DNA of 64,000 nucleotides from a plasmid, in sequence record NZ_CP118109.1. One strand, given 5' to 3'. The notes beneath the pieces are model-generated. The model was not told the DNA's origin. It was given only the letters and a program-made list of their open reading frames with translations, and ran no database searches. Both the position numbers and the translations under genes were made by a program. Position 1 is the first letter of the stretch. Each line of letters opens with the position of its first letter. Positions 6,259 through 63,016 of this stretch are shown here, piece by piece.

Positions 6259-9200
6259 TTACATCAGAGAATCCATATTCTCTTTGAAATAGTTATCAAT
6301 CTCGTGACTTCGATCTTCCTCGTACCTAAAGTTCACACTGGTTTCATTTCCTCCATTAGGAGCTATGCGAATATCCACATCCGTGAGTCCCTGCCCTTCC
6401 AATACAGCTCGAATGTTATCCTGCATTTCTTGATAGCCTGAGAATTGAGGCCCGTTCAGATAAACGTCGTTGCCTTCAGGTGAGATGTCAGGCAGATAAC
6501 TGGATGAGACAACATCATCTGTCCAGAAATTGAAATCACTCATATCCAATCCGGCTTCTTGAACTGCCTTCACTTTCATATCATCAAGGTCGACTTTTGG
6601 ATTCCATCCGATCCAGCCGGGGTCAGGCAGGACGAACTTGGAGAACACTTCCTCCAAGGGAGCAGGACCTTCATTTTCCATTCCCCATAATGCTTTATAG
6701 ATGCGCCGTTGGTTTTCTGGAATGACTTCTAGGATTCGCTGTCGGTCCTTTTCAGGAGCTTCAACAAAATCATCAAAGAACCATTTATCCTTGTATGGGA
6801 ATGCACTAGCCAGCTTCATTCGATCGCCATATGGGTCAGCACCGTAGACTGTGCGCTCATACATATCTTTGTAATGCATGGCCATAAGCACTTCTTGCGG
6901 CAGTTGCACTTCGTTGAATCCTTGACCCATTAACTCGATCTCTTTATTGATAGCTTTTCGCTGATCTTCCCATCCTTCAGGCTGATCAATGAATAGTCTG
7001 ATCTTCTGATCTTCCAAATCACGCTTTCGCTGCTTATTCATTTCCTGTCGAGCTTCTTCGCTCCCAAGAATAGCATCAACATCATAACCAGCTTCAGCGG
7101 CATCAACCTTGGCTTGCTCATATAAGCCACGAAACTTCATGTATTTAAGGACATCGAAGTATTCGTTAATATCATTCTCTATTCGTCTACGCTCAGGAAT
7201 CCATGCTTCGCCTGTTTCTTTCTCGTAATTCTGTCTATAAAGATTGCCGATTCCAGCTCCCAAGGCTCCAACAATACCACTGCGCAGAATATTCTTCTTA
7301 CTTGCTCCAAAGATATTTAAGAATCCGCCAACAGCTGCGCCAGCAATTGCTCCACGCATCATCGACTCATCCAGATCATGACGGATGATAGATTGGAATC
7401 CAGGGATGAGATAATCATCAATCAAGAAGTTTTCCCATGTTGCCCAGTCCTTACCGTAGACCTGATCCCTCTCATACTCCTCAAGAGCTGTACGCACCTG
7501 CAGGAACTTCGTATTCAGTGGCGACTCATAGTGAGCAATCCGCTCCCATCGTGCGCCCTTGCTAATCTCAGAATCTGAGAATCTTGAGAATACACCTGCT
7601 GCTGAGAAATCAGTTAGATTCTCTTTCATAAGTCCGCGAGCAAGAATGTCACGGTTGATATTTCCGATGTCTTCGTTATAAACGACAACCCGTGCTGTCT
7701 TGTACGTATCATTCGAAATCTGCTTACTCTCATCGCCATTGAGACCGATGGTGACTTGATCGCCAATACCCAAATACGATCGAAGAACGCCTTCTGCTTT
7801 CCCTCTTAAATCGACACCGGCTAGTCTAAAGACTTGATCGCCAAACTCTTCTGTTACAAAGCTGTAGTCGTCCAAGAATTTACGCACTGTAGCCTGTTGA
7901 TATTCAAGTTCAGCGCCCTCAAAGCGATAAGGAGTAAATTCATACTTCTGCTTTCTTTGAGCCACCTGGCGCTTAATTTCAGCCGCTTGTTTTCTCAGCT
8001 CGGCGTCCGTGCTCGTCTCCACGACATAATCACGCCAGAATTTGTATTCGTCACTCCAAGGCGCTACATCAGCCAGTATCTTAAATTTATCGAAGGCACC
8101 GTAAGCACCTGTCTCATCGGGATGAAGTTGATTGAGCTTTTCATATGTTTCTCCCGGTAGTCGGTATTCACCATTCTCTATTTTCTGATAGGGATCGCCG
8201 CTTTGGAAGTCAATGAAATAGTCTGAACCAGGCAGCCAATCTGGCATGGTGTTTCGGATTGGATTAAACTTATCCAACTGTCCATCATCACGCCGTATGA
8301 ACCGGCGCCCAATCTCGGAGAGCTGTCCTCCAAGAGAACCTGCATTCAGGGACTGGAAAGCATTCGATAGATTGTAAGCTGCATCAGCTTTCTCAATAAC
8401 TGTCTTACCTTCATAAGGATTGTATCCGAAGACTTCATCTTGCAGAATCCATTTGTATACCCCTAGAGGTTCTGACCAGTTTTCCCATGCTTCCTGCATA
8501 AGCCATCCGGCCTGTGTTGGATCTTGAAGGTCTTCTAGCTTCCGGTTCTCAAGCTCTTGCTTGTAGGCGAATCCGTCATCAAACATGGCACGAGGTTTCG
8601 TTTTAATCAGAGTATCATCGTCCGTCTTCTCAGCAATATTGAATAACTCTTCGATGGTGTAGTCTTTATTGGCCACATTTGCTGGCACGTAGATGGCTTG
8701 CCCTGTATTGACCTCTTGAGCAACATAAGCCCCTGTTTGATTCCCCTCAGCATCCTTCTGGTGAATCTGGATATAGCGAGGCGCCGAAGTATCAGCATCC
8801 CTTGTATATTGATTAGCACCATAGTCTTCAGAGTCTGCGTATACAACATTCTCCGTTCGACCGCCTGGAGAGAACCGCGTCACGATTGGCGAGTTAGGAC
8901 GATTACCAAATTCCGATGTCTGCTCCTGCATTAAGATAGGATCGCCCCAGTATTCGGGATGCATCTTCTCAGTCGGTTTAATAAGCTGACCAATCGTGGC
9001 ATTTCCGATATCTCCAAAGAAAGGTGTATTCGGGTTGAATAGTGATCCAGTAATCAGATAAGGACGATCATAGAAATGTTTCCTTTCCCAGTAGTACGGA
9101 TCCTTCATCCCGAAGGCGTAAGCCAATCCCCCTAATGGATTTCGGAAGGTTGGCAGCATATTAGCTTCTGACCATCGCTCCTCATTGGTTAGGTCTGTGT

Positions 9201-12132
9201 CACTGTCCTCCGCATCCGACATAGCAAGTCGGTAGCTGTTAGGTCGATGCTCAGTAATACGATCTCCTCGGTAGGCCGACTTAGAACCAAACGCCCACCA
9301 TCTACTCTTACGCACTTCATCCACGCCATACTGCAGGTATTCTTCATACTCTTCAGCAGAGTATGCTTCCTTCTCATCAATCGGCGTTCCGCCATATCCA
9401 AGAGCAGATGCAGCAATGTAGCCCGGACCTACAGGACCAATGCCCGGAAGATAAATGCTAGGCATAGCGGCAAAGTGATCAATCCCAGGAGTGAGCATCC
9501 TTGCCCTTTTCTCTTCCTCTGTCTTTCCACTTTCATCATCAGCCCAAGCTTCAATGAGATTCGTTCTAGCCTTATAGTTTTCCCAGCGATCAGATACACT
9601 CTGTCCTGTAGACTGCTCAACTTCCCAATCCAAATACTGAGCGTACTGTGTGCCAAGATAGATTGGAAGGAATCTCTTGAGCATTAGGGAAGACATCATC
9701 TTCAGTGGGCTTGTCATTGAGTCATCTGAGAATCCAAGCCCAAGATCACCTAGGGCATCCTGCAGACGATAGATCGGATAGTTGGCTCCAAAGATCGAAA
9801 GGTTTGTGAAGTCCTCCATGTTTCTTCGACCCGTCCGAAGTCCCATCTGTTTTGCTTTATCTCCGAAGTCCGTGAAGAACTCAAGAAATCTTCCAGAGGT
9901 AGTCGTTGATTCAAATGCCTTATTCACCGCAATATATTCATCGTTTATACGGTTGACTGGTCTTGTTCCAGAGAACTTTTGAAATAGAGGATTGGTTACA
10001 TGAAGATTAGCTTTCACATTATCCTGGAATTTCAAAGCTTCTGGCGTCTGTCCGGTCATTAGATTATTAATGTCGTTAATTGCACCTGAAGGATTCGAGT
10101 TGATCCCGATTTCTGACTTCTTGTATTGTGCATGGCTGAATAGGAACTGTGTATCTTGCCACTCTTGTTTCGTCAGCTTGTCTGCATCAAAGAGATCGTC
10201 CGTATACTGTCTGAAATCAAATGGACTCATTGTGTTCATTTGCTTCCGGTGAACAAGCTGATTGATCAGATCGATACTAAGCTGCTGATGAATGCGATCG
10301 AATCCCGTTTGAATATTGGTATATTCTCCAAGCCAAGAGGAATCCCCTACGGGTCTTTTAGAATGCAGGAAAGCATCCGGATCGCGCTCATACTTTTGCC
10401 AGAGTGATTTCAGTTCACCGCTTGCCATTCTCTTTCCATCACCTTCACCCATGAAGCGAAACACTTTCATAAAGTCATCTTGCGTGCTGAAGGTAATCTC
10501 ATTAGCCTGAACAAAATCTCTCAAGCTGGCTGGCATATCATCCATCATATTGTTAAGGGATCGGGCAGATAATCCTTTAGTGTACTTCTCAAAATAAGCC
10601 CTGACAGCATAAGAACTCTCTTGATCGATACCGCCTTGAAGGGCTTTATTAATGACATTACGTTCCCAGTCTGGATTAAAGAACTTATTAACTCTCCCTA
10701 GCGCCCCATGAATGGCAGCATCCTTATCCTGCCTTCCTAAATCAAAGACGCCAGCAAAGAAGTTTCTCTGGCCACCTTCTTCGGTCATCATGCCTGACAC
10801 TTGCCGTGTTACCTTGCCAATCGTTCCGAATCTTGATGAGGTAAGAAACATATCACGCTGCTTATTTAGTACTTCCATACCTGCATCTGTGTTGACCGCG
10901 TTATCGTCAAAGAGACGAACGAATTTACCGTTGACGTAGATTAGCGGTTCATGGGCTCTCTCTTTGACATCTAAGCCACGTTGAGCGTTGAGTCCTGGCT
11001 GAACTACATCTCGGTTAAATATGCGGAAACTGGCAATCTCACGAGCTTCTTGCATATTGATGTTATCCCGCATGTGCATGAGTCCGCCCGGCAACGTCTT
11101 GGCGGCCCACTCTTTAACGCCTCTGCGCATATCATCATATGTTTTGTAATCGGTCCAATCGATGATCTTTCCGTTTCTCTCTCTAATGTATACATTCTCA
11201 TCAAACACAGATTGGCCAAACTTTTTGTTGTACTGCATGATCTCTTCCATGTGAGCAACAAGCTTAGGATCTACCTGCATAACTCCATTCTTATTCATGG
11301 CTAAGATGTCTTCTACAGTAGCCTGTCTGTGTCCATTCATTACGCCCTTGTATCGAGCTTCTTTTCGGGTCAGCGTATCCATCTGCTCGGCAGTAAACTT
11401 ACGCATCTTGGTTTGAATGCCTTCGATCCATTCGCGGGCTTCTTCTGAATCAGCACGATAATTCCTATTTCGATAGGCGTCTTGAATACGAGTAAATTGG
11501 TCAATTGCTTCCCGATCAGAAACACCGTGCTTGCGAAGGTGGGATGCCATCTGCTCGGACGGGAGCGATCTTAGGAACCCAGGATCTCCGCTCTCCATTG
11601 CACTTTGAATAGACTTTGCATGCTTAGGCATACGTGTTTCCACTTCTTTAAGAACGTCCCGGTACCGCAATCCTTCTTGGATGTGAAACGGTACTTGCTC
11701 CGTAATCATCTGTTCTCGCTGACGGATGTAGCGCTGCATATCGTATTCTTCTGCACCGCCGCGCCGACTAAACTCTCTCATCTGTTCAGTCTGACGCTTC
11801 ACTAATTCACTTCTTCGTTCATTGAATCTCCGGATCGATCCCGGCAAATCCCTTGTCAGAGTTCTTGAAGGACGCTGCTCTTGCATGATCTCTCTAGCCG
11901 CCTGATAGGAACCTTTAACTTGGGTATCAAAAAAACGCGTGATTTGTCGGGTAGCTCCGGTACGATGCATTAAAGCTCTTGCTGCAATGACACCCCCTAC
12001 TGCGATACCTGCCTTTGCAAAAAAGGACATTTCATCATCCTCTTCATTTGATTGCAAAAAGCGGGTCATTGGACGACTGTCATTATCTAAATAGGGGGTA
12101 AACTTATTCTCATCGTATTGTTCTCGTTCCAA
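6259..12132 (-). CDS. 1957-aa protein, putative tail tape measure protein
   Basis: Position after tube and chaperone-like genes; very long, mainly helical/charged; Gly-rich hydrophobic segments near N-terminus (GIAVGGVIAARALM) and C-terminus (GAIAGAAVGGFLNIFG..GIVGALGAGIGNLY). Confidence 0.5.
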   Translation of the reverse strand: MEREQYDENKFTPYLDNDSRPMTRFLQSNEEDDEMSFFAKAGIAVGGVIAARALMHRTGATRQITRFFDTQVKGSYQAAREIMQEQRPSRTLTRDLPGSIRRFNERRSELVKRQTEQMREFSRRGGAEEYDMQRYIRQREQMITEQVPFHIQEGLRYRDVLKEVETRMPKHAKSIQSAMESGDPGFLRSLPSEQMASHLRKHGVSDREAIDQFTRIQDAYRNRNYRADSEEAREWIEGIQTKMRKFTAEQMDTLTRKEARYKGVMNGHRQATVEDILAMNKNGVMQVDPKLVAHMEEIMQYNKKFGQSVFDENVYIRERNGKIIDWTDYKTYDDMRRGVKEWAAKTLPGGLMHMRDNINMQEAREIASFRIFNRDVVQPGLNAQRGLDVKERAHEPLIYVNGKFVRLFDDNAVNTDAGMEVLNKQRDMFLTSSRFGTIGKVTRQVSGMMTEEGGQRNFFAGVFDLGRQDKDAAIHGALGRVNKFFNPDWERNVINKALQGGIDQESSYAVRAYFEKYTKGLSARSLNNMMDDMPASLRDFVQANEITFSTQDDFMKVFRFMGEGDGKRMASGELKSLWQKYERDPDAFLHSKRPVGDSSWLGEYTNIQTGFDRIHQQLSIDLINQLVHRKQMNTMSPFDFRQYTDDLFDADKLTKQEWQDTQFLFSHAQYKKSEIGINSNPSGAINDINNLMTGQTPEALKFQDNVKANLHVTNPLFQKFSGTRPVNRINDEYIAVNKAFESTTTSGRFLEFFTDFGDKAKQMGLRTGRRNMEDFTNLSIFGANYPIYRLQDALGDLGLGFSDDSMTSPLKMMSSLMLKRFLPIYLGTQYAQYLDWEVEQSTGQSVSDRWENYKARTNLIEAWADDESGKTEEEKRARMLTPGIDHFAAMPSIYLPGIGPVGPGYIAASALGYGGTPIDEKEAYSAEEYEEYLQYGVDEVRKSRWWAFGSKSAYRGDRITEHRPNSYRLAMSDAEDSDTDLTNEERWSEANMLPTFRNPLGGLAYAFGMKDPYYWERKHFYDRPYLITGSLFNPNTPFFGDIGNATIGQLIKPTEKMHPEYWGDPILMQEQTSEFGNRPNSPIVTRFSPGGRTENVVYADSEDYGANQYTRDADTSAPRYIQIHQKDAEGNQTGAYVAQEVNTGQAIYVPANVANKDYTIEELFNIAEKTDDDTLIKTKPRAMFDDGFAYKQELENRKLEDLQDPTQAGWLMQEAWENWSEPLGVYKWILQDEVFGYNPYEGKTVIEKADAAYNLSNAFQSLNAGSLGGQLSEIGRRFIRRDDGQLDKFNPIRNTMPDWLPGSDYFIDFQSGDPYQKIENGEYRLPGETYEKLNQLHPDETGAYGAFDKFKILADVAPWSDEYKFWRDYVVETSTDAELRKQAAEIKRQVAQRKQKYEFTPYRFEGAELEYQQATVRKFLDDYSFVTEEFGDQVFRLAGVDLRGKAEGVLRSYLGIGDQVTIGLNGDESKQISNDTYKTARVVVYNEDIGNINRDILARGLMKENLTDFSAAGVFSRFSDSEISKGARWERIAHYESPLNTKFLQVRTALEEYERDQVYGKDWATWENFLIDDYLIPGFQSIIRHDLDESMMRGAIAGAAVGGFLNIFGASKKNILRSGIVGALGAGIGNLYRQNYEKETGEAWIPERRRIENDINEYFDVLKYMKFRGLYEQAKVDAAEAGYDVDAILGSEEARQEMNKQRKRDLEDQKIRLFIDQPEGWEDQRKAINKEIELMGQGFNEVQLPQEVLMAMHYKDMYERTVYGADPYGDRMKLASAFPYKDKWFFDDFVEAPEKDRQRILEVIPENQRRIYKALWGMENEGPAPLEEVFSKFVLPDPGWIGWNPKVDLDDMKVKAVQEAGLDMSDFNFWTDDVVSSSYLPDISPEGNDVYLNGPQFSGYQEMQDNIRAVLEGQGLTDVDIRIAPNGGNETSVNFRYEEDRSHEIDNYFKENMDSLM

Positions 12133-41822: not shown

Positions 41823-41887
41823 CCTAATTCAGCACCCCTTCACTATTCATGAAGTTTGCATGAGTGCACCTCCTAGGCAGGATGTTC

Positions 41888-44796: not shown

Positions 44797-44973
44797 TTAT
44801 TTTCCTTCGTTTTGCTCCGATTCAATAGCTTTCGATAATAATCGTCTGGCTTCTGTTGCCCAATCACCTGGCTTGATCTTATCGAAATGATCTTTAATAT
44901 CTGTATCGACATCACGAATGATGACTTGGACTTTCGGCACCTTCCGTGCTTTCGTCTCTCTTTCTTCAGCCAT
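44797..44973 (-). CDS. 58-aa small basic/acidic protein translationally coupled (TAATG) to the actin-like gene; candidate ParR/AlpR-type DNA-binding adaptor
   Basis: ATG overlaps the stop of the upstream gene; MAEERETKARKVPKVQVIIRDVDTDIKDHFDKIKPGDWATEARRLLSKAIESEQNEGK; below the 60-aa cutoff of the ORF track. Confidence 0.5.
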   Translation of the reverse strand: MAEERETKARKVPKVQVIIRDVDTDIKDHFDKIKPGDWATEARRLLSKAIESEQNEGK

Positions 44974-46166
44974 TACGCTGCCTCGCTTTCGAATATATCT
45001 TTGATGAATCTTTCATAAACCTGCTCAAAGTTCAGACTGCCATCTTCCTGTTCCTTGACTTGGTTCATTGCCGCACGAATATAGAATCCATATACGTTCG
45101 CCATTTGCGGGTCGTCCACTACGGAGAAGGCTTGTACCTTACGCTTCGCAAACTCTTCTTTCAAGAAGTCTTGGAAGATATGTGCGCCCCCGCCTGAAAG
45201 CAAGATGATCTTCACACGGTTCGCATGCTGACCCCAAGACGTAATAACCTCATTTGCGATGACTGCAGAGATCTCCTTCGCGGCTTCTTCTACAAGATGA
45301 TACAGATTATGAGAAGCGCCATTGAACTCGATTTCTTCTCCACGAACGACTGAATCTAGTTCGTCATCCGTTGGGCTGTAAGCAACCCCAAACTCGTTAT
45401 CAAAGTGAATAGCCATACTCACTTTGAGTCGCTTGTACAGCTCAGCAGTCGCAAGTGTCGATCCATAAGTTCCCTCTTCCTCTACATATACGCCTTCGGA
45501 GAATAATGCATAATCTGTAGTGAGGTGCCCGATATCAACGATAGCAGTCAAAGCTCTGTAGAGCGTAGTCGTCAAAAGACCTTCTTTTGTGAAAGCGAAT
45601 TGTGTAGATGTTACACTTCCCTCTGGCTGTCTCAAGATTTCATATCCAATAACATTAATTTTCTTAGTGATTGTTTTTCCATAACCAAGGTAGATCACAA
45701 TTTCAAAACTTTGGTTTATGTACTCTTCCAACCGTGTGCGAATACCTTTATCGAAATCCTCATTCGGCAGACCAGTTGTTAAGTAGACATTATATTCTCC
45801 ATCTTCATGAGGAACACATAGTGCAAGATTGGTTTCAAACATAACTCTGAATGATGGATCGGATGCACGGTCATGATTGGTTGTCCGACTTGTAACCAGA
45901 AGCTTATTACTCTTCATTGCCTGTTCGCCTACATGATAGAAACCGTCAGTAGTCTTCACCATCAAGCGAGATTCATCGACTTCTGTGTGCTTAAAGGAAT
46001 TAGCGAACTTTTCATTTGTAGGCATGACAGTACTCGGTATGACACCGAACATGCCTAAGCTCGACATGCGCTTGCTTCCATTAAAACCAATATCAATTGC
46101 TGCAAGCTCAAAATCAAATAAGTCTTCTAGCTTTAACTTCAAATCTTTCACTTTTTTCACCGCCAT
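44973..46166 (-). CDS. 397-aa actin-like ATPase (ParM/Alp family)
   Basis: Actin-fold phosphate-1 LAAIDIGFNGSK, phosphate-2 IVDIGHLTTDYALF, adenosine motif ILLSGGGA; RBS GGAGG. Confidence 0.7.
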   Translation of the reverse strand: MAVKKVKDLKLKLEDLFDFELAAIDIGFNGSKRMSSLGMFGVIPSTVMPTNEKFANSFKHTEVDESRLMVKTTDGFYHVGEQAMKSNKLLVTSRTTNHDRASDPSFRVMFETNLALCVPHEDGEYNVYLTTGLPNEDFDKGIRTRLEEYINQSFEIVIYLGYGKTITKKINVIGYEILRQPEGSVTSTQFAFTKEGLLTTTLYRALTAIVDIGHLTTDYALFSEGVYVEEEGTYGSTLATAELYKRLKVSMAIHFDNEFGVAYSPTDDELDSVVRGEEIEFNGASHNLYHLVEEAAKEISAVIANEVITSWGQHANRVKIILLSGGGAHIFQDFLKEEFAKRKVQAFSVVDDPQMANVYGFYIRAAMNQVKEQEDGSLNFEQVYERFIKDIFESEAA

Positions 46167-46187
46167 GATTGTTTTCCTCCTAATTCG

Positions 46188-46213
46188 ACATGTTATATCA
46201 TATTATAACATGT
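46188..46213. promoter_or_regulatory. Perfect 10-bp inverted repeat ACATGTTATA-N6-TATAACATGT, 22-47 nt upstream of the actin-like gene start: candidate operator/centromere-like site
   Basis: Read directly from the sequence. Confidence 0.5.
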
Positions 46214-46742
46214 TCTGATGTATTCTCTCGTAAACGATCATAACATATTTAATAGATACCAAGCAACCCTTAATTTGGACAACAAAAAAAGCAGCAGGTG
46301 TGCCGCCCGCCGCTTTTCGAACAAGTGAAGCTGTATGAGGTTGGAGATCTCACGTATCCTTCGCTGAGTTATATTTTAAGCCATTTGGCAAAAAATATCA
46401 AGAACGTATGTTCTCTTTTTGTGATTTCTTTTCACAGAAAAGGCTTCAAGACCGTTGCCAACGTTTCAACATATGATTTCAACACTGGAGGTGTAATTTT
46501 AACAGATAGAGGGTGGCAGTCCTATGACCTGTTGGCTATTTACTTGAAGCCCTTTTCTCTAAAAAGAGTATTGGCATACTCCGGATTATTTTTTTGTAGG
46601 AGGTGTCGTGAGCCCATGCTAAGCATCACGATTAATCCGGAGCAAACCATACTGTGTCCAGTCAGCTATTTTGAGGAGAGCTGCTGCAGTCATCTGCCAA
46701 GTCGGGTCTGTGTTCTCGACTTGAGTTTATTCTATACGATAA

Positions 46743-46756
46743 TGTAATGCATTACA
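46743..46756. promoter_or_regulatory. TGTAATGCATTACA perfect palindrome copy at the edge of a 640-bp ORF-free region
   Basis: Same motif family. Confidence 0.45.
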
Positions 46757-46854
46757 ATATGATTATATATTATTTCACGCGTTTTCTCTCTTTTTTTCTT
46801 TGACGCTTTTGATTTTGCTCTATGATGTACGTTTCCTCTTGATGTGTCGCTTTC

Positions 46855-50287: not shown

Positions 50288-50365
50288 ATTTTCTATACTC
50301 AAATTGTAATGCGTTACATTTTATTTGACAACAATTAAATTTTCTATAGGGGGCAATTTTCTATA
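50288..50365 (+). repeat. Three direct copies of ATTTTCTATA (50288, 50339, 50356) in the divergent control region
   Basis: Exact 10-mer repeats. Confidence 0.5.
50305..50318. promoter_or_regulatory. TGTAATGCGTTACA motif copy in the divergent control region
   Basis: 45 nt upstream of the minus gene start at 50260; followed on the plus strand by TTTTATTTGACA. Confidence 0.5.
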
Positions 50366-50389
50366 AAAAAATTTTTGCGTGGGGTACCT

Positions 50390-50450
50390 AGTTGTTTATT
50401 GTTGGCTGATGGTAGCGTTCGACGCCCCACCCCCTCAACAATAAGCAACC
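50390..50450. promoter_or_regulatory. Inverted pair AGTTGTTTATTGTTGG / TCAACAATAAGCAACC with a nested GTGGGG...CCCCAC dyad, ahead of the membrane-protein/polymerase operon
   Basis: Imperfect 16-bp inverted repeat with ~30-bp spacer. Confidence 0.4.
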
Positions 50451-50503
50451 ACATTAGGGTTGGCAGTGATCCCAATCAAACTGCACATCGAAAGGAGTCT
50501 ATC

Positions 50504-50992
50504 ATGACTAACACATTATCAGCTATTGCTAACACTATGGGAGAGGACGCTGTTCTTAAGACTGCATCAGCTTTAGGTATTGCATGGAGAGTAACAAAGA
50601 ATGTAGCAGGCTTCGTATATAAGAACCTTATACATAAGCCTATTGTTAAGGCAGCTAATGTAATACGTAAGCATAAGTGGGAAACAGCTGCTACAGCAGC
50701 CTCTGCTGTAGTAGGTGGTGTAGCCACTACTAGCGTATGTGGTGCAGGGTTGATGGCTGCTGCTGTAGCTATGGTTGCTGTACTCACTATCCATTTCCTT
50801 ATTGCTAAGCGTAAGAAGCAGGCTATGGACTGGCGTAGAGCTATCTTATCAGCCATGGTATGCGGTCTTATAGCAGGGTTCCTGCCTGTAATATCTGTAT
50901 ACCTAACGATGTGGGCATGCATTGGTCTTGACTATGCATGGCTTGCATCTGCATATACGTATCTCTACACTGCTGCTTTGTTCGTGATCTAA
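50504..50992 (+). CDS. 162-aa predicted membrane protein (3 hydrophobic segments)
   Basis: RBS AAAGGAG 6 nt before ATG; strong NNT/NNA optimal-codon bias shared with the polymerase gene downstream. Confidence 0.55.
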   Translation: MTNTLSAIANTMGEDAVLKTASALGIAWRVTKNVAGFVYKNLIHKPIVKAANVIRKHKWETAATAASAVVGGVATTSVCGAGLMAAAVAMVAVLTIHFLIAKRKKQAMDWRRAILSAMVCGLIAGFLPVISVYLTMWACIGLDYAWLASAYTYLYTAALFVI

Positions 50993-51343
50993 TAGGTCAT
51001 GGACATGGCATGGTATAGATGCATAGGGAGTACACGATAACGGTGGATGATCCCCTATGTAGGCTATACCCTCTACCCTACCTTATATGGTGGCATGGGT
51101 GGCAGTACTATGGTTAGCCATATTGTGCCTATGTATATGGGCATATGGGTGTGTAGGTGCACTCTATCATATACAGCCCCTGTGTAGTACGCATGGTCCG
51201 GGTCAGCCGCCCCCATGTGTAGTATGCAGGGGTCTTTTTATTTATTTACACATAGCTCCCTGTATAGGTGCCCTATATAGACCCCCCTCTATATGGACCC
51301 CCCTATATAGGGAGCTGTATGTAAGTACAGCACATTTAACCCC
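50993..51343 (+). repeat. 350-bp ORF-free GC-rich array of about 10 degenerate CCC(C)TRTRTAGG-like words immediately upstream of the polymerase gene
   Basis: cccctatgtagg, ccttatatggtgg, cctatgtatatggg, cccctgtgtag, ccccatgtgtag, ccctgtatagg, ccctatatag, cccctctatatgg, cccctatataggg; T-run at ~51230. Confidence 0.5.
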
Positions 51344-51359
51344 AAGGAGGAATCACTCT

Positions 51360-54300
51360 ATGTCAACTGATTCAAAGAAAGCTATGTCGTCCGTCCCTAT
51401 GTCCAACAAACAAACTAAAACAAACAAAAAGGAGCAATCTACAATGACTAACAACAAACAAGCACAAATCAACAAGCAACTGGCTGAGGTAAACCGTCTT
51501 TTCAACAAAGCTATCAAAGGTAACAAACTAGAGGCGCAAATGTCTGATTACAAGTCTACTTCTGTAGTATTGGATGCTATTGCTGAGTTCCCAGGATTGG
51601 GCGTTAAAACAAAGAATTATGAGGCTATCACAGCTGCTATCGCTAGTGGTAAGGATATCCGTACTGTTATGGAGAACCCGGAGCTTACTGGTGTTCCTAA
51701 GAATCAATATCGCTTCTTCCGTGCATTCATGGAAGAGAAAGGTGCAGAGATTCCTGCTATGGTGATTGCACCTACTCGTAAGCGTGTACGTACTGTATCT
51801 GTCGATCTATTGAAACATTCCCGCAACGAAGCTGGTGAAGTGGTGCTCAACGCGGAAGTCAGCTATCAATCTCAGTCTCAGCTTGCTGATGCATTCGGTA
51901 AATTGGTTCCAGCTACAGATAGCAATGATCTACACTTGGATGCGACTCACATTGTCTATATCGATTTGAATATCGCTGATCAAGAGAATCAAGAAATGAA
52001 AGACTTGCAAATCGAGATCGTCCGTAATGGATTCTATTACACAGTGGAAGGCGTTACACGCAAAGCTAACTTCTTTATTCAGACAGCAAATCAAACTCGT
52101 CAATTGCAAGGTATCTATATTGCAGAGGACTTCATGACGATTCCTCAAGCATTCCGCAAGCTTGGTCATAGCTTCCTGTCTTATTGCAAACTGGATAAGG
52201 CTACTGGTGTCTATACACTGGATATCACGAAGTATCTGAAACGTCCAGGTCTGTCTGGTACAAGCTCTGTGCCATCTAAGGTAGTAACCTTCCCTAATGC
52301 TCATATCGACAAGCTGCCTAACATGAGAACAGGAGAATACTTGGTTAACTCTGATCGTCACTCTATGGCAGTGATTGATGATCGCTTTGCTAAGATCAAG
52401 AATGGTAAGTTCAAAGCATTCTATAACAACCGTGTAGTCACTGTATCTGCGGTTGATGGTACATTCACAGCTACATGGAAAGAAGGACGCATGACTAAAG
52501 AAGAAGTCCTGCCTATGAACTATCTGAAGCTTGGCGTAGGCGATGGCTTGGTTCTAGCTTCCGAGTCGATCTACTGGGCATTGAAGGCTGAGTTTGGCAA
52601 TGATTCCGATGCATGGCAAGTACGTATCACCCCATTCGTTAAAGGCTTGATGGTATTCGTGCCAGGCTTGCGTCAATACTATGATGCAGATATCGTTGCA
52701 TTCAAGTCTGCTGTGAAAGGTGACTTCCGTTTGCTTGCTGATAGCGAAGGTAAGATTGACTTTGGTATTGAGCTGCGTATTGCACGCTTTGCTAAGCGTC
52801 CTGCTATGAAGTCTGAGTATGTAGAGCTTCCATATCAGTTTGCACATGTATCCAGCATTACAGCAGAGCAAATGATTGATGTTGCTCAACCACGCCTGGA
52901 TGAAGCTAAGAGTGTACTTACTAATCCTGCACTGATTCAAAAGTATGCAGGGGTTGCTCACTTGGAGAAGCTGAACAAGCTGACTCTTGCACAAGCTGAG
53001 TTTCTACGTGATCGCTCCCTTGTTTCTGTATTTGCTAACTTCATGCACTATGCTCCATTCACATTCCAAGATGCTTACATGCAAACAAGAGCACTGAGAC
53101 TGATGGGGCAGCAAGTAGACAAATGGGTTGCTGGTACGATTCCTGTAGAAGGCGAGTATCGCTTCATGGTTCAAGATCCATATGCATTGCTTCAAGCTGT
53201 GGAAGATGAGAATGGAGATATGATTGTCCCTGATCACGTTGGTCTTAAGCCACACCAAACATTCATGACAGCACGCGATAACCAACACTTTGTAGAGGGC
53301 CCTGTTGCATCCTTCCGTAACCCTGCTATTGCTAAAGGTGAAGGACGTATCTTGAATGGTGTAGCTCCACAAAACTATGTGACTGCTTCTGCTAAAGGCG
53401 CATTCAACTCTGTATGTGTAATGAGCTGCCATGACTTGGATACATTCGCTGAAGGCGGAGCTGATAACGATGGTGATGAAACATTCATTACACAAGTACG
53501 TGCTATCGTTAATGGCATCATGGGTAAAGATGGTCAATCTAAGTTCTTGGCTATGCTTGACCTGCATGTAGATAAAGATGGTGAGTGGTCTTCTGGATGC
53601 CCGTTCCCTATGGAATCTGATGAGAAGCTTGCATTTGATGCTCCTTGCGTATCACACGATGGACAATTCAAAGTGAAGTTCACTGCCGATCAATATAATG
53701 ATGCATTCATTCAAGCTGTACATGAGCTAAGCAAAGAGTATGTCATTCGTACACTGACTCCTAACAAGATCGGTCAACTGACTAACATTGCTACTCGTCT
53801 TGCTGATGCTGTACGTAAAGTAGGATATATGTATGCAGAGAATACCAATGAGTTTGGTCAAAAGACTGAACGTTCAGATGCTGAGAAACAAGAGCTGATT
53901 AGAGAGATCGCTCGTATGGAAGATATGATCGACTTGATTCGTCTGGCTCAAGGATGGGAGATTGACCGTGCTAAGCATGGTGGTGCATATGAGGAAGCAT
54001 TGGCTGCTGAATTGGAGTTCATCAACAATCCTCCAAGATATGCAGGATTCCAAGAGTCACCTAAATCCAAGCGTCAATGGATCAAGCAAGCATGGCTCGC
54101 ACATCACAAAGGTGCTGAGGGTGGAGTAGACACAGGTTCTGTAATGTCCCGTGTGCATAACCACATGAAAGCATTCGTACAAGAGAATGTAATCGACAAG
54201 TCCGAAGAGATCATGAACGATGTAGAGAACAACAACCTGATTCATATCCTGAGAGCTGAGTATGTTATTGATCCAGTTATCTATGACAGAATCGCTAACT

Positions 54301-54992
54301 CTATTCGTTCCATTCGCTCTATCTATACAAACGACATCAAGAACGCTCGTCAGAAGCATGAAGAGTTCATCAAGCTTGCTGAGCTGAAATATGGTGAGGC
54401 TGATCCTGCACTGGCGATGGCTAAAGAGAAGATCGAGCGTATCTATAGAGATGATTGCGATGCGATCACCTATAAGAGTCAAATGACACTTGGCGCTTTG
54501 GAGTTCTCTTTCTCTGCGACTGATATCGGCTATGTTGCATACATGGTGACATACACTGAGAGAGGTCAAGATAACAATCGTTCGATCAGCTTCCCTTGGG
54601 TCGTGGCTAAGAAGCAATTCTTGGAGCTGTGTGCTGCTATCTCTAATCGTGAGATTGTGAAGAACCCTTATGTTGTCCCTGCATCTGATATCAAGGCAAA
54701 CTTCCGTATTGGGGCTGATTCAACTGGTCGTGTGTTTGATGGAGAGAGAATGGCACCTGTCATTGCGAATGCAGGTATGGTAACAGTGGAGTATATGTAT
54801 AACGAAGTTACTGAAAGCTACATGTATGTTGTTTATGTTCCAGTAGGCAGCAGAAATGTATATGTAGGCGACTTCTACCAAGATCAAGTTGGATTCTTGA
54901 CTGGTGCAACACGTTTCAATCTTACAGTGTCCAATGCTGAAGCTAAAGGCAGAACTATGAGTCTGACGATCTCCAGCATCGAACGCATGTAA
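51360..54992 (+). CDS. 1210-aa single-chain two-barrel (YonO/RDR/crAss gp66-like) RNA polymerase candidate
   Basis: Beta-prime DPBB signature VASFRNPAIAKGEGRIL ... GGADNDGDETF (compare NRAPTLHRLG ... NADFDGDQM); RBS AAGGAGG 9 nt upstream of ATG 51360 (alternative ATG 51444 also has an RBS); the track N-terminal extension from 51087 translates a repeat array and is rejected. Confidence 0.65.
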   Translation: MSTDSKKAMSSVPMSNKQTKTNKKEQSTMTNNKQAQINKQLAEVNRLFNKAIKGNKLEAQMSDYKSTSVVLDAIAEFPGLGVKTKNYEAITAAIASGKDIRTVMENPELTGVPKNQYRFFRAFMEEKGAEIPAMVIAPTRKRVRTVSVDLLKHSRNEAGEVVLNAEVSYQSQSQLADAFGKLVPATDSNDLHLDATHIVYIDLNIADQENQEMKDLQIEIVRNGFYYTVEGVTRKANFFIQTANQTRQLQGIYIAEDFMTIPQAFRKLGHSFLSYCKLDKATGVYTLDITKYLKRPGLSGTSSVPSKVVTFPNAHIDKLPNMRTGEYLVNSDRHSMAVIDDRFAKIKNGKFKAFYNNRVVTVSAVDGTFTATWKEGRMTKEEVLPMNYLKLGVGDGLVLASESIYWALKAEFGNDSDAWQVRITPFVKGLMVFVPGLRQYYDADIVAFKSAVKGDFRLLADSEGKIDFGIELRIARFAKRPAMKSEYVELPYQFAHVSSITAEQMIDVAQPRLDEAKSVLTNPALIQKYAGVAHLEKLNKLTLAQAEFLRDRSLVSVFANFMHYAPFTFQDAYMQTRALRLMGQQVDKWVAGTIPVEGEYRFMVQDPYALLQAVEDENGDMIVPDHVGLKPHQTFMTARDNQHFVEGPVASFRNPAIAKGEGRILNGVAPQNYVTASAKGAFNSVCVMSCHDLDTFAEGGADNDGDETFITQVRAIVNGIMGKDGQSKFLAMLDLHVDKDGEWSSGCPFPMESDEKLAFDAPCVSHDGQFKVKFTADQYNDAFIQAVHELSKEYVIRTLTPNKIGQLTNIATRLADAVRKVGYMYAENTNEFGQKTERSDAEKQELIREIARMEDMIDLIRLAQGWEIDRAKHGGAYEEALAAELEFINNPPRYAGFQESPKSKRQWIKQAWLAHHKGAEGGVDTGSVMSRVHNHMKAFVQENVIDKSEEIMNDVENNNLIHILRAEYVIDPVIYDRIANSIRSIRSIYTNDIKNARQKHEEFIKLAELKYGEADPALAMAKEKIERIYRDDCDAITYKSQMTLGALEFSFSATDIGYVAYMVTYTERGQDNNRSISFPWVVAKKQFLELCAAISNREIVKNPYVVPASDIKANFRIGADSTGRVFDGERMAPVIANAGMVTVEYMYNEVTESYMYVVYVPVGSRNVYVGDFYQDQVGFLTGATRFNLTVSNAEAKGRTMSLTISSIERM

Positions 54993-55629
54993 TAGGCGAG
55001 CCACCTATATCTGTAGTCGGCATGTTCCTAGGCATGTCGGCTACTCCTTTATTATAGCACACCCTTCGGGTAGGTGCTAACGCCATCGACAGCTCCACGC
55101 TTCCACCCTAAGACGCCCTGCCCTTTGCAGATGACGAATCATACTACTTGTAGGATGCTTTCGTTAGACGCGAAGGCAGGATGCTTATATGGGACATGCA
55201 TGGACGGCAACTTACGGCAATACAGCTAGACAGCTGAATCATATGAATATAACGTCCGGTGGGGGAGGAAGCTGCTTCGCAACGTGGACGCTGATCTATA
55301 TGAGCAAGCTCTTTCCCTATGTTGTCGATGGCTGTTATCACCTATCCGAATCGTGTGTAATCTCAAGTGTGACGCTACTTTATGTACGATGACTTATATC
55401 ACAGAGAGCTACATCCTGCTGTATATCATACTTCGGATGCTATATTCCCTATTTCGTATATCATATGCTACTGAAAGTGGTGAACCCTCATCCGAAAATT
55501 TTCTTCATCCTGCGTATGATTATCTTATGTGCTCTATAGTGTATGACGATGTAATAGATAGTGCAGACGATGGTCGCTAACGCTCCTGTGGCATTGTGAA
55601 TGTTTAACTTGAACGAGGAGGTTATCTAT
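54993..55629 (+). other. 637-bp apparently non-coding spacer downstream of the polymerase gene, with related word composition (cacctatatctgtag, cttatatggg), a GGCATGT/GTCGGC duplicated segment and a small ACCC-TTC-GGGT hairpin
   Basis: No ORF with a credible RBS or codon usage; composition unlike neighbouring coding DNA. Confidence 0.4.
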
Positions 55630-55968
55630 ATGAGTAACAAATTGCTAACTGAAGGACGTAGCTTATTCGACCATAGTTTATCTAAGGAGGAAGTACGTAA
55701 TCGCAACCTAGACGTATTTGCCTTTATGATGGATATGCTTAGACTATATACAGAAAGAAGTATCTCTGGTAGTCAGCTCTGCATGCTACATGCTAGTTAC
55801 CATAGTGTGAATATGAAGTATACTATGGGCAAGAAAGAGTTCCAGTATCGTCTTGTCGTGTTGATCAATGCTGGCTTTATAGATAGAGAGACTATAGAGA
55901 AAGATGATGTGCTCTCTCCTACTGAGCTTGGTATGAATAGATATGATGCTGTATGTACTGTAGCTTAA
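55630..55968 (+). CDS. 112-aa small protein, possible winged-helix regulator (paralog 1)
   Basis: RBS GAGGAGG; C-terminal SPTELGMNRYD shared with the next ORF. Confidence 0.45.
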   Translation: MSNKLLTEGRSLFDHSLSKEEVRNRNLDVFAFMMDMLRLYTERSISGSQLCMLHASYHSVNMKYTMGKKEFQYRLVVLINAGFIDRETIEKDDVLSPTELGMNRYDAVCTVA

Positions 55969-55988
55969 CTATATAGGAGGTTAATCAT

Positions 55989-56279
55989 ATGAATCGCTAT
56001 GATGAAGACTATAGTAGAATGGAGATACGCCTTCGCAATATGGAGGCGTTCTCTGCTGTAAAGAAGATGATTGAGCATGGAGATGTAGATGAAGCACCGT
56101 TGAATACTATAGTGTCTATGTATCCTTTGTTTGAGATGGATATAGATATGCCTCTTCATGAGCTTGAGTATCGTATTCGTCTTCTGCATAATGCTGATTA
56201 TGTTTATATACGTAATGGAGCTTATGGTTCTGAGATGGTATCCATAACTGAGTTAGGATTAAGGAGATATACTTCTTAG
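55989..56279 (+). CDS. 96-aa small protein (paralog 2, ITELGLRRYTS)
   Basis: RBS AGGAGG. Confidence 0.45.
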   Translation: MNRYDEDYSRMEIRLRNMEAFSAVKKMIEHGDVDEAPLNTIVSMYPLFEMDIDMPLHELEYRIRLLHNADYVYIRNGAYGSEMVSITELGLRRYTS

Positions 56280-62762: not shown

Positions 62763-62895
62763 TATTTCATATGATTTATAAGATATTTCATATGATTTAA
62801 GTCTTATATCATATGCGATAACAGTTATATCGTATGATATATTATATAATTCCTATTTCATATGATATATTAAATACTTATACGATGCGATTAGG
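62763..62895 (+). repeat. Iteron-like array: six ~16-bp copies of TAT(T/A)TC(A/G)TATG(A/C)(T/G)ATA with a CATATG/CGTATG core, ~20-bp phasing
   Basis: tatttcatatgattta x2 exact, tatatcatatgcgata, tatatcgtatgatata, tatttcatatgatata, cttatacgatgcgatt. Confidence 0.55.
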
Positions 62896-62973
62896 TAATT
62901 AAGCTTGGCTCTTTCATTTATCAGGACGTGTTTTCGTACTATTGATTAGTACTATTAATATGCTTAACACAAT

Positions 62974-62981
62974 TGTATAAT
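62974..62981 (+). promoter_or_regulatory. TGTATAAT extended -10-like element ahead of the 63017 gene
   Basis: TG directly adjoining a consensus TATAAT; no convincing -35. Confidence 0.35.
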
Positions 62982-63016
62982 TCTAGCAAACTACTAGAAG
63001 GAGGAATTATATGTAG

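Follow-up and report, generated by a model that had tools for sequence, protein, structure and literature searches.

Two conserved non-coding regions bracket a YonO-like RNA polymerase gene in an uncultured Bacillaceae-type myophage

The DNA analysed here (the window; 64,000 nucleotides of the plasmid record NZ_CP118109.1) belongs to an uncultured myophage of Bacillaceae type (~190 kb) that may be a phage-plasmid and whose relatives form a family of uncultured ~190-230-kb Bacillaceae phages that may also be phage-plasmids. Two regions that are free of conserved open reading frames (ORFs), region 1 (50993-51343) and region 2 (54993-55629), flank its gene for a YonO-like RNA polymerase. Both regions are real and conserved, and they look like control elements for the production and use of the polymerase, not like the edges of an imported cassette. 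Region 1 specifies RNA 1, a new folded RNA with a transcription stop signal at its end. A first-pass annotation had singled out both regions and offered three readings of them, namely tandem promoters for an injected polymerase, structured non-coding RNAs, and boundaries of a horizontally acquired polymerase cassette. Its observation has proved largely real and is confirmed in part, and its interpretation is partly supported.

The features discussed below are as follows (coordinates, strand, description and basis):
50504-50992, plus strand: small membrane-protein gene (162 aa, ribosome-binding site AAAGGAG), full length in L002, L208, L004 and L011
51012-51070, plus strand: P1, a long hairpin with a kink-turn-like internal loop, from covariation
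51071-51107, plus strand: P2, a hairpin that is C-rich in its 5' arm and G-rich in its 3' arm, with a conserved CAGUA after it; pairing kept
51147-51164, plus strand: P3, a hairpin with the conserved loop GUAGGU (51153-51158); the stem covaries
51176-51248, plus strand: P4, a hairpin of ~24 bp with the conserved apex GGGU-CAGCC-GCCC, and a U-tract (51234-51248), from covariation
51243-51327, no strand: four CCCTATATAGGG-type palindromic words starting at 51257, 51270, 51285 and 51299, from word conservation
51360-54992, plus strand: gene for a YonO/RdRP-family single-subunit two-barrel RNA polymerase (1210 aa), from Pfam and motif
55013-55044, plus strand: terminator-like hairpin of 14 bp directly after the polymerase gene, from equivalent hairpins in relatives
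55060-55083, plus strand: motif A (CACCCTTCGGGT-AGGTG; 4-bp stem, UUC loop) fused to a GCTAACGC core, from recurrence
55207-55285, plus strand: conserved core with the blocks AACYUNNGGYAAYNCAGC and CC..GG-G-GG-AGCWG, from a sequence model
55321-55358, minus strand: decayed inverted second copy of motif A with its flank, from comparison with L002
55572-55603, plus strand: motif B (GGTCGCTAACGCTCC; GGTCGC-TAAC-GCTCC), then 11 nt and GAATGT, from recurrence before genes

The polymerase gene and conservation of its flanks

The identification of the enclosed gene as a polymerase is borne out by Pfam RdRP (PF05183), matched by eight of the 13 members of the polymerase family, and by the motif GGADNDGDE (DxDGD), which is invariant in the family. 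The gene has the ribosome-binding site AAGGAGG at 51344-51350. The distinct codon usage that had been ascribed to the enclosed genes was not found for it: its GC3 is 0.402, against 0.413 for the structural genes (codon-frequency r = 0.80), and the deviating GC3 (0.324) belongs to the small right-hand early genes.

Both gaps hold their position in 16 relatives whose polymerase identity ranges from 80 to 32%, so that comparison with related phages finds both flanks conserved, and the order of membrane gene, RNA, polymerase gene and non-coding region is syntenic down to 32% identity. Compared with L002, region 1 shows 83% nucleotide identity and the adjacent membrane protein 41% amino acid identity. 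The membrane-protein gene starts later than the listed TTG at 50375, and in every relative with RNA 1 this RNA begins directly behind the stop codon of that gene.

The claim that the two regions are free of ORFs stands in its meaningful sense: ORFs of 46-98 aa exist in both, and none is conserved. The polymerase frame is open upstream to an ATG at 51087, and in L002, the relative with 80% identity, it carries a TAG at codon 4. A tblastn search returned short fragmentary matches only, whichever the frame; its control, the flanking membrane-protein gene, was recovered at full length. The composition of both regions is unlike that of the AT-rich early intergenic gaps (21-29% GC), as had been noted, but they are just mildly GC-rich (47.7% in region 1 and 45.4% in region 2, against 43.3% for the window). 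A sigma-70-like promoter was not found in region 1 or region 2.

A structured RNA upstream of the polymerase gene

Region 1 is a ~240-nt structured RNA on the plus strand, consisting of P1, P2, P3, P4 and the U-tract, and covariation is seen in all four hairpins. The proposal of structured non-coding RNAs is thus strong for region 1; for region 2 it is weak: sequence blocks and small hairpins of varying stem are conserved there, but RNAalifold gives no consensus secondary structure for the core. In P1, the internal loop (5' side AGUA, 51029-51032; 3' side GAU-GA-UC, 51046-52) adjoins a C-stem CAC/GUG (51033-35 with 51043-45) that is closed by the heptaloop GAUAACG (51036-42). Among seven sequences, 98.4% of the cells of the 18 pairs of P1 are paired, compared with 27-48% in slid controls, and 14 of the 18 pairs show compensatory changes on both sides. 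P1 and P2 together, in four sequences, are 95.4% paired, with 11 double changes. Eight G.U cells in P1 are compatible with a plus-strand RNA alone, and RNA 1 is therefore assigned to that strand. In the window clade, the P1 loop departs from the kink-turn consensus (GUA for GA on the non-bulged strand). The P1 model R2 finds a single copy per genome and none in the unrelated viral loci searched alongside; it detects the non-seed sequences L003 (E = 3.6e-5) and L005. In the Oceanobacillus clade (L012, L013), neither R1 nor R2 found a match in the 3-kb upstream flank.

The arms of P2 are wholly different among the window, L002, L207, L208, L003, L010 and L015, with pairing preserved, and the stem of P3 changes from GGGUGU/GCACUC in the window to GGGCGU/GCGCUU in L002, GGGCGU/GCGCCU in L207 and GGGUC/GGCCC in L004. 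The basal and middle stems of P4 covary in L002, L207, L208, L209 and L004. By its sequence, P4 with the U-tract (the T-run noted earlier, located at 51234-51248) is an intrinsic terminator closing RNA 1. The U-tract follows P4 in the window, L002, L208, L209 and L004 and is absent in L207, and by eye, from the sequence, no terminator was seen before the polymerase gene in L010, L015 and L016. Since this terminator is not universal, gating of the polymerase gene cannot be the sole or universal role of RNA 1. We could not find any convincing conserved antiterminator alternative for RNA 1.

Repeated words and the palindromic array

The cluster of degenerate words reported for region 1 exists. 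The strict word CCYNTRTRTRG occurs five times in the window, always on the plus strand and within 51052-51310, against 1.19 times in whole-window shuffles, and region 1 holds 17 of the 19 matches to the relaxed pattern CC-N0-2-TRTRTRG, of which any other same-length window has one at most. Many of these CCCTRTRTAGG words are arms of RNA 1 stems.

The sub-array of palindromic words spans 51257-51312, and as RNA the array folds into a single 79-nt hairpin (dG -49.1, z -7.1). L209 keeps the array word, not the pairing geometry, and comparison with L002 reveals no compensatory changes. The CCTATATAGG word of the array also lies ~7 nt upstream of a TATAAAAAA box in the conserved early-promoter unit of the family, GAAA-N3-CCTATATAGG-N7-TTTATAAAAAA-TTGCG-GGGGTACC, which the window, L002, L003, L004, L005, L010 and L013 carry at their divergent early region. 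Because this word is shared, a promoter or operator role for 51257-51312 is possible.

The non-coding region downstream of the polymerase gene

The small hairpins described in region 2 are substantiated by the 14-bp terminator, which has an equivalent after the polymerase stop codon in all relatives, and by the fold of the whole region (z = -4.6). The supposed sharing of the word family with region 1 is not: neither strict nor relaxed matches occur in region 2, where enrichment is confined to loose YTATAK words (seven, in the top 1.5% of same-length windows).

Motif A is always on the plus strand and opens the non-coding stretch 3' of the polymerase gene; its stem variant AUCC-UUC-GGAU is found in L006, L013 and L014. 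The core was found by a sequence-only model built without the window (E = 6.9e-6), and the long-range helices of region 2 have weak support. In L002, the inverted copy of motif A and the plus-strand copy are identical across motif and adjoining flank (~20 nt); the changes in the window's inverted copy are uncompensated in the 5' copy, so that it is a duplicated motif, not a selected helix. Motif B precedes the next start codon (ATG 55630; ribosome-binding site 55615-55621) by ~45 nt, and at this position before genes the relatives have either the same motif or perfect-stem hairpins with a TRAY loop. Both motifs recur on the plus strand before genes in relatives, their stems varying and staying complementary (GTGGGC-TAAT-GCCCAC, GCATGC-TAAC-GCATGC, GGCGC-TGAT-GCGCC, GCTCCC-TAAC-GGGAGC). 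The canonical "stem" of motif B includes two pyrimidine-pyrimidine mismatches, and a 117-kb relative has just two exact copies of this motif. The window's structural genes are not preceded by motif A or motif B, which excludes either motif as a general promoter for the phage polymerase.

Proposed roles and alternative explanations

We propose, giving it an even chance, that regions 1 and 2 are conserved cis-regulatory and non-coding RNA regions of a rightward early operon, bracketing the YonO-like polymerase gene. From the sequences compared here we infer start sites, termination and read-through at both regions, and likewise attenuation, protein binding, polymerase signals and any promoter function, in the following mechanism. 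Region 1 would be co-transcribed with the upstream membrane-protein gene into the ~240-nt multi-hairpin RNA, whose kink-turn-like loop in P1 may bind a protein and which, in the window lineage, would finish at a strong intrinsic terminator. Given this structure and terminator, RNA 1 would most likely be a leader or attenuator that gates read-through into the polymerase gene. The CCCTATATAGGG palindrome array between the terminator and the polymerase ribosome-binding site is probably a regulated promoter or operator of the polymerase gene. In region 2, the terminator would first halt transcription of the polymerase gene; motif A, the core and motif B are probably a start or leader region for the downstream genes, and the phage polymerase may enter at this region.

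A somewhat unlikely alternative is that the CCCTATATAGGG-type words and motifs A and B are tandem phage-specific promoters, read by the YonO-like polymerase (positive feedback) or by a virion-delivered one. Such promoters would be consistent with the fixed distance of the CCTATATAGG word from the TATAAAAAA box and the conserved transcript start-like GGGGTACC, with the similar layout of the last array word (51299-51312), which is followed after 6 nt by TATGTAAGT, and with the tandem copies of motif A in L006 (4-5) and in L012, L014 and L016 (two each). [quoted passage not shown] However, no virion polymerase was detected within the 64-kb window, where the injected polymerase suggested earlier finds no support; three of the words (51052, 51177 and 51212) form arms of covarying RNA stems; the strict word is found nowhere else in the window, not even before the structural genes; and a palindromic word is more in keeping with a dimeric protein bound to DNA than with a promoter that has a direction. 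Intergenic sites across the genome carry another, strongly over-represented signal, TGTAAYGCRTTACA (seven sites against 0.03 expected), often as TATAAT-N5-palindrome, which is absent from both regions. It is unlikely that RNA 1 (terminated at 51248) and a region 2 RNA are released as stand-alone small RNAs that act in trans and not in cis, for instance within a kink-turn ribonucleoprotein, as a sponge or by binding the polymerase of host or phage. In favour of this reading, RNA 1 ends in a terminator of its own and is retained where a further gene comes between it and the polymerase gene (L004, L005), its highly conserved loops (GAURACG, GUAGGU, CARCC and CAGUA) suggest specific partners, and stretches rich in CCUCC (anti-Shine-Dalgarno-like) are present in region 2 of relatives. 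RNA 1 nevertheless keeps a fixed position with respect to the polymerase gene, no promoter of its own is visible ahead of it, its start being at the upstream stop codon, and no target can be named.

It is quite improbable that region 2 is a DNA-level element, which would be a transcription-primed replication origin right after the polymerase gene, as in the T7 model. Its core is conserved as sequence with no detectable RNA covariation, the copies of motif A are convergent in L002 (the window having a decayed copy), three ~37-nt tandem repeats are seen by eye in L207, and CATATGAT words are clustered at 55238-55513 and 62768-62859, but the orientation of the conserved blocks strictly follows the strand of the genes. 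The cumulative GC skew, with a minimum near 50 kb, would also suit an origin; since it turns where the genes change orientation, it is uninformative. A horizontally acquired polymerase cassette, of which the two regions would be scars or boundaries, is very improbable and is rejected here, since the gaps keep their positions in the relatives, with gene order, down to 32% identity, and the codon usage of the polymerase gene matches that of the structural genes. Although this gene has a higher GC content than the small early genes on its right (0.437 vs 0.377), region 1 is more strongly constrained than the gene beside it, and regions 1 and 2 have no direct or inverted terminal repeats in common.

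Comparison with known systems

The locus is like the YonO locus of SPbeta: in both, the gene of a single-subunit two-barrel polymerase of the RdRP family precedes a long non-coding stretch and, beyond it, the genes to be transcribed, all in one orientation. In SPbeta the YonO-dependent start site is located in this stretch, ahead of a non-coding RNA (PMC5467207), and in the SPbeta-like phage BUCT082 the corresponding place is a 1.7-kb gap that is largely non-coding. The loci differ in that the proteins are too distant for BLAST, no common sequence motif is seen by eye, the P1 model R2 has no match at the YonO locus, further genes lie between yonO and the gap in SPbeta, and the DUF3800-VIII RNA motif of the SPbeta-like gap is absent from the window locus. 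We know of no equivalent of RNA 1 upstream of yonO.

A kink-turn-containing domain, an intrinsic terminator and a downstream gene form the classical attenuation layout, and Bacillus has the L7Ae-type kink-turn binders YbxF and YlxQ. With its ~180-nt domain, U-tract hairpin and downstream gene, RNA 1 resembles the kink-turn leader RNAs of Firmicutes (T-box, SAM-I and lysine riboswitches). Unlike these, it has no Rfam match at gathering or E-value thresholds, no conserved antiterminator and no known ligand or effector, its terminator is missing in some clades, and its loop in the window clade is off consensus.

Motifs A and B are like the processive antitermination RNAs of phages (put of HK022, nut boxB of lambda) in being small conserved hairpins with fixed loops (UUC in motif A, TRAY in motif B) and variable stems, which flank terminators ahead of gene blocks in predicted early transcripts. 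They differ from these in sequence and size, and put requires two stem-loops of defined geometry, none such being seen here. In phage T7, gene 1 is followed by the promoters phi1.1A and phi1.1B and the primary origin, and the promoters of the N4 virion polymerase have a short stem and a 3-nt loop. Although the polymerases of T7 and N4 belong to an unrelated enzyme family and the stem of motif A is just 4 bp, the present locus is like T7 in that conserved short signals immediately follow the polymerase gene, and motif A, like the N4 hairpin promoters, is a short stem with a 3-nt loop.

Polymerase gene and gene order

Up to ~50.26 kb the large ORFs lie on the minus strand and include those for the tail sheath, portal and large terminase, and from ~50.3 kb rightward the genes are on the plus strand.

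Protein-coding features
51360-54992, plus strand: polymerase ORF, 1210 aa, with the ribosome-binding site AAGGAGG at 51344-51350
44973-46166, minus strand: Alp7A/ParM-like actin gene (ALP_N, E 1.3e-24)
6259-12132, minus strand: ORF of 1957 aa in the structural module, with no match in Pfam or PHROG

The 1210-aa protein had no direct match in Pfam or PHROG, and a PDB sequence search with it gave none. It contains the catalytic DxDGD motif (as GGADNDGDE), of which D702, D704, G705 and D706 are invariant across 13 homologues in the family alignment. Fifteen homologues were found in a large protein database, one of them named 'RNA dependent RNA polymerase [Virgibacillus salexigens]', and the Pfam RdRP domain PF05183 is matched by eight of the 13 clear homologues (best E 2.1e-17) and not by the window protein itself. 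Because of the invariant motif and the PF05183 matches within the family, the protein is, judged by sequence, a YonO-like single-subunit two-barrel polymerase. Enzymes of the YonO class are minimal relatives of cellular RNA polymerases and belong to the fold family of the cellular RNA-dependent RNA polymerases. Nothing supports an identification of the 1957-aa ORF as a virion polymerase.

Among cultured phages, megablast found no relative and tblastn only two weak partial matches, so there is no annotated reference. Sixteen related loci (numbered with L) were gathered, with polymerase identities from 80% (the closest relative, L002) down to 32%. The homologues sit on contigs of 190-230 kb, including one of 194,705 bp from Oceanobacillus profundus DSM 18246; this 194.7-kb contig and the actin gene suggest that the phage is kept as a plasmid. 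A 688-nt gap upstream of the actin gene (46167-46854) holds one TGTAATGCATTACA palindrome. Most of the 16 loci keep the usual gene order: first a divergent AT-rich promoter region and a small membrane-protein gene, then the polymerase gene with a non-coding gap on either side of it, and finally small genes; some have an extra ORF inserted. The true start of the membrane-protein gene is ATG 50504, and the one listed at 50375 (TTG) is spurious. A Pfam scan of 20 small neighbouring proteins for sigma-factor, antiterminator or L7Ae-like domains returned only L5_gp82 and LysM domains.

Composition and coding capacity of the flanking regions

The first-pass annotation had described region 1 (50993-51343, 5' of the polymerase gene) and region 2 (54993-55629, 3' of it) as GC-rich, ORF-free DNA sharing one family of repeat words, and had read them as tandem promoters, structured non-coding RNAs or the borders of an acquired polymerase cassette. 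Their GC contents (47.7% and 45.4%) do set them apart from the AT-rich early gaps (21-29%), and it is relative to these gaps that they are GC-rich. The absence of a credible ORF stands: both regions do contain ORFs, 46-98 aa long, and none is conserved, and tblastn with all frames gave fragmentary matches only, while the neighbouring membrane-protein gene was retrieved at full length. The ORFs of 98, 67 and 65 aa in region 2 were rejected as coding for want of conservation. The polymerase frame is open for 91 codons 5' of its true start (51087-51359) and would yield a hydrophobic N-terminus; this extension from ATG 51087 was rejected, having no ribosome-binding site and, in L002, a TAG at codon 4, and the open frame is a chance one that runs across the structured RNA.

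Region 1 is 83% identical to its L002 counterpart at the nucleotide level, whereas amino-acid identity in the adjoining membrane protein is only 41%, so the non-coding DNA is under the stronger constraint. The cassette reading fails on several counts. The codon usage said to be distinct is not: the polymerase gene (GC 0.437, GC3 0.402) resembles the structural genes (0.448, 0.413), with codon frequencies correlated at r = 0.80, and the compositional outliers are the AT-rich small genes to its right. The gaps and the polymerase gene are syntenic among relatives rather than variably present, and no repeats are common to both regions. Recent horizontal acquisition is therefore rejected on codon usage and kept synteny.

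A structured RNA upstream of the polymerase gene

The structured-RNA reading holds for region 1, in which the individual folds of nine relatives have a common architecture of four hairpins, here called RNA 1.

Elements of RNA 1
51012-51070, plus strand: P1, long hairpin; its tip is a 3-bp stem with heptaloop GAURACG, with an asymmetric internal loop alongside
51071-51107, plus strand: P2, hairpin, its 5' arm C-rich and its 3' arm G-rich; conserved CAGUA after it
51147-51164, plus strand: P3, hairpin with a covarying stem and a conserved GUAGGU loop
51176-51233, plus strand: P4, hairpin of ~24 bp; basal and middle stems covary, apex GGGU-CARCC-GCCC conserved
51234-51248, plus strand: U-tract after P4, TCTTTTTATTTATTT

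Aligning and folding all nine sequences together (MAFFT, RNAalifold) did not succeed, as their loop lengths differ, and subsets were used with success. For P1, 18 pairs were predicted from seven sequences by RNAalifold, and 98.4% of the pair cells are standard; both sides change in 14 pairs, a value reached by none of the shuffles, and sliding the partner by 1-3 columns lowers the pairing to 27-48%. RNA 1 is assigned to the plus strand because eight P1 cells are G.U, which would be C.A if the other strand were transcribed. The arms of P2 are wholly different among relatives with pairing retained, and the structure-covariation check proposed in the first-pass annotation finds covariation in P1-P3. 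Beside the P1 internal loop, the 3-bp C-stem itself covaries (CAC/GUG, CAU/AUG, CGU/ACG) and is followed on the 3' strand by a GAU bulge (GCU in L207, a relative of 47% identity) and then by GA, present in all seven sequences; the non-bulged strand has GA in L208, L004, L011 and L014 and G-U-A in the window, L002 and L207. This order of elements is that of a kink-turn, and from sequence the loop may be called kink-turn-like.

P4 and the U-tract have the anatomy of an intrinsic terminator, one that a simple terminator scan missed because its loop limit was 8 nt; the scan did pick up the hairpin at 55013-55044. The covarying P1-P3 make up a conserved structured domain 5' of P4, a trait of riboswitch or transcription-attenuation leaders. 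A terminator at this place is not universal: it is absent from L207, and by eye none was seen in L010, L015 and L016. Folds without the 3' arm give alternative pairings in the window and L002, their conservation is not obvious, and no conserved antiterminator was found for RNA 1.

The covariance model of P1 (R2) has a single match in each genome, always at the syntenic position, and these include sequences outside its seed (L003, E 3.6e-5; L005, 0.056), and the same search of unrelated viral loci gave no match. The model of the short-loop clade (R1) retrieved only its own seeds, and neither model matched in the Oceanobacillus clade (L012, L013). Against Rfam 15 the window had no match at the gathering threshold, and at E<5 the stretch 50300-56000 gave only chance-level matches. 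The equivalents of the two regions in 12 relatives had no Rfam match either, and tRNA scans of the window and relatives found nothing in the regions; matches to mir-506 (E 0.007) and NsiR1 (E 1.8) were dismissed as chance matches to hairpins. Region 1 is a candidate for a new structured RNA family. In L004, a relative of 44% identity, Rfam detects a type III hammerhead ribozyme (49.4 bits; gathering threshold 48.5) at 4612-4666 (+), with a 49-aa ORF on one side and the membrane-protein gene on the other; the window showed no counterpart of it.

The word array and the early-promoter unit

The cluster of words in region 1 was confirmed. The window has five matches to the strict form CCYNTRTRTRG (1.19 expected over its full length); all five are plus-strand and fall within 51052-51310, and 17 of 19 relaxed matches lie in region 1. 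Region 2 has neither strict nor relaxed matches, with only loose YTATAK words in excess, and does not belong to the same word family. Three words of region 1 (51052, 51177 and 51212) form arms of P1 and P4.

The segment 51243-51327, which lies between the RNA 1 terminator and the ribosome-binding site of the polymerase gene, is made of four palindromic words of CCCTATATAGGG type and folds into a single hairpin of 79 nt (dG -49 kcal/mol, z -7.1). Compared with L002 it has no compensatory changes, and in L209 (57% identity) the words are kept in a different arrangement; selection therefore seems to act on the word and not on the pairing. The array word also occurs in a strongly conserved early-promoter unit, GAAA-N3-CCTATATAGG-N7-TTTATAAAAAA-TTGCG-GGGGTACC, found in places in tandem at the divergent early region of the window, L002, L003, L004, L005, L010 and L013. 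Beyond the last word ahead of the polymerase gene, TATGTAAGT comes after a spacer of 6 nt, a layout similar to that of the early unit, and we infer that the array serves this gene as a promoter or operator module. No SigA/sigma-70 promoter (-35/-10, 16-18 nt spacing) was found in 50993-51359, nor any plus-strand site in 54993-55629. The promoter reading may hold for a sub-part of region 1.

At 50326-50470 of the window an early unit (CCTATAGGGG word, N7, TATAAAAAAATTTTTGCG) is followed by a leader, GGGGTACCTAGTTG...GCGTTCGACGCCCCACCCCC, of hairpin-like appearance; unit and leader are kept in L002, L003, L004, L005, L010, L013, L207 and L208. In other relatives the array slot holds AT-rich DNA or the conserved motif GGCGGGRCTCATGCA. 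Several carry this motif after the terminator of RNA 1 and ahead of the polymerase gene or of an inserted ORF (L003 5865; L004 5445; L005 2522; L011 2870 and 7213(-); L014 2842; L209 ~95), and in three of these TATATAAG comes ~12-14 nt further on. The window has GGCGGGRCTCATGCA only at 41865 (-), upstream of the terminase region, and at 11085 (-), inside the 1957-aa ORF.

A dispersed palindrome

Seven copies of the 14-bp palindrome TGTAAYGCRTTACA are present in the window (13573, 19923, 30389, 38384, 46743, 50305 and 59419), against 0.03 expected, and none of them falls in region 1 or region 2. Five sites are intergenic, with start codons 30-70 nt downstream on either strand, and the form is often TATAAT-N5-palindrome; the site at 50305 overlaps the -10 of a leftward TTGTCA-17-TACAAT promoter. 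Eleven of the 13 related loci checked carry the palindrome, which is likely a master operator or phage-specific promoter element, and a better candidate for a phage-wide role of this kind than the words of region 1.

Elements downstream of the polymerase gene

Elements of region 2
55013-55044, plus strand: terminator-like hairpin of 14 bp after the polymerase stop codon, present in all relatives too
55060-55076, plus strand: motif A, CACCCTTCGGGT with a GTGCA-like tail, here fused to a GCTAACGC core
55572-55586, plus strand: motif B, GGTCGC-TAAC-GCTCC, ~45 nt before ATG 55630, with a GAWGAN box 11 nt on

Throughout the family motif A keeps this place in region 2 and its plus-strand orientation, in some genomes in tandem, and one stem variant retains pairing (AUCC-UUC-GGAU). 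It is followed by a C-rich stretch and then by a conserved core, whose blocks AACYUNNGGUAACUCAGC and CC..GG-G-GG-AGCWG align in 14 sequences. A sequence-only core model from which the window, L002, L016 and L011 had been left out recovers each of them (window 55207-55285, E = 6.9e-6); its other matches were only partial, in loci fetched with the block-3 pattern. RNAalifold gave no consensus structure for the core, or weakly supported long-range helices, and the core may act as DNA. An inverted repeat, 55058-55094 / 55321-55358, was rejected as a selected RNA helix, the window substitutions being uncompensated; in L002 the inverted copy exactly matches the plus-strand motif A and its immediate flank, the window copy is decayed, and the repeat is read as a duplicated motif.

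The motif B arrangement also precedes genes in L002, L003, L004, L005 and L207, where the variants form hairpins without mismatches, their stems differing and their loop reading TRAY. A general phage promoter was rejected for motif B, of which a 117-kb relative has only two exact copies. Both motifs are taken as local signals, since the structural genes of the window are preceded by neither and exact copies of motif B are few. In scans of IMG/VR, patterns with 14-15 specified bases gave mostly chance matches, and a pattern joining motif A and block 3 across a gap found only the two contigs already known.

Region 2 is a conserved regulatory leader of uncertain nature. Three ~37-nt tandem repeats (TTCGTGNATCCGGTGAGGTTRTTCGYGG...), iteron-like, lie at ~6025-6125 of L207, in its region 2 equivalent. 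A 254-nt gap of 25% GC at 62763-63016 of the window contains five TTTCATATGAT / CATATGAT-type words, which could be an operator array or origin-like element; the same 8-mer occurs three times in region 2 (55238, 55460 and 55513) and also at 55984 and 60993.

Proposed mechanism and comparison with known polymerases

The observed feature is real and conserved, and its conservation, structure, strand and non-coding status are well supported. In the mechanism that we propose, transcription from the divergent early region would pass the membrane-protein gene and RNA 1. There RNA 1, bound by a protein at its kink-turn-like loop, and the P4 terminator would restrict or gate passage into the polymerase gene, for which the array of palindromic words would supply a regulated start or operator. 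Transcription would end after this gene; at motifs A and B a new unit would start or undergo processing, with the phage polymerase as its possible reader. As a whole we give this mechanism an even chance.

The flanking RNAs might instead be partners of the polymerase (RNA promoters, templates or cofactors) in a polymerase-plus-guide-RNA module. RNA partners have precedents in 6S RNA for bacterial polymerase and in the non-coding RNAs of retrons and DRT systems for reverse transcriptases, and by this analogy such a module is conceivable, though we consider it very improbable; in a milder version, motifs A and B could be a hairpin-type promoter of the YonO-class polymerase. A retron-like or type III toxin-antitoxin system was rejected, the words being irregularly spaced stem arms with no tandem units and the protein a DxDGD two-barrel polymerase.

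If RNA 1 does gate polymerase expression, as in the mechanism we propose, it would be a new switch for the hand-over from host to phage transcription in large phages. The 2017 YonO paper states that promoter recognition by polymerases of the YonO class, and the control of their own expression, are unknown. The phage family offers material on both: a new and well-supported structured RNA that has a kink-turn-like loop and lies directly 5' of the polymerase gene, and, as further candidates, the hairpin motifs directly 3' of it, the conserved early-promoter unit and the 14-bp palindrome. All are testable candidates for regulatory RNA, promoter or operator roles, and the culturable strain O. profundus DSM 18246 hosts one relative in which motif A and the downstream core are kept.

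The literature gives no sequence for a YonO promoter. In SPbeta, YonO starts transcription 3' of its own gene and 5' of a non-coding RNA and yonK, from a promoter that is unknown (PMC5467207). In the SPbeta-like phage BUCT082, a largely non-coding gap of 1.7 kb (7244-8961) separates an HU-like gene, which follows the YonO homologue, from yonK, and a DUF3800-VIII RNA motif lies in it at 8632-8697 (47.5 bits). BUCT082 has the layout of SPbeta, and the SPbeta YonO locus is alike in layout to the unit proposed here downstream of the polymerase gene.
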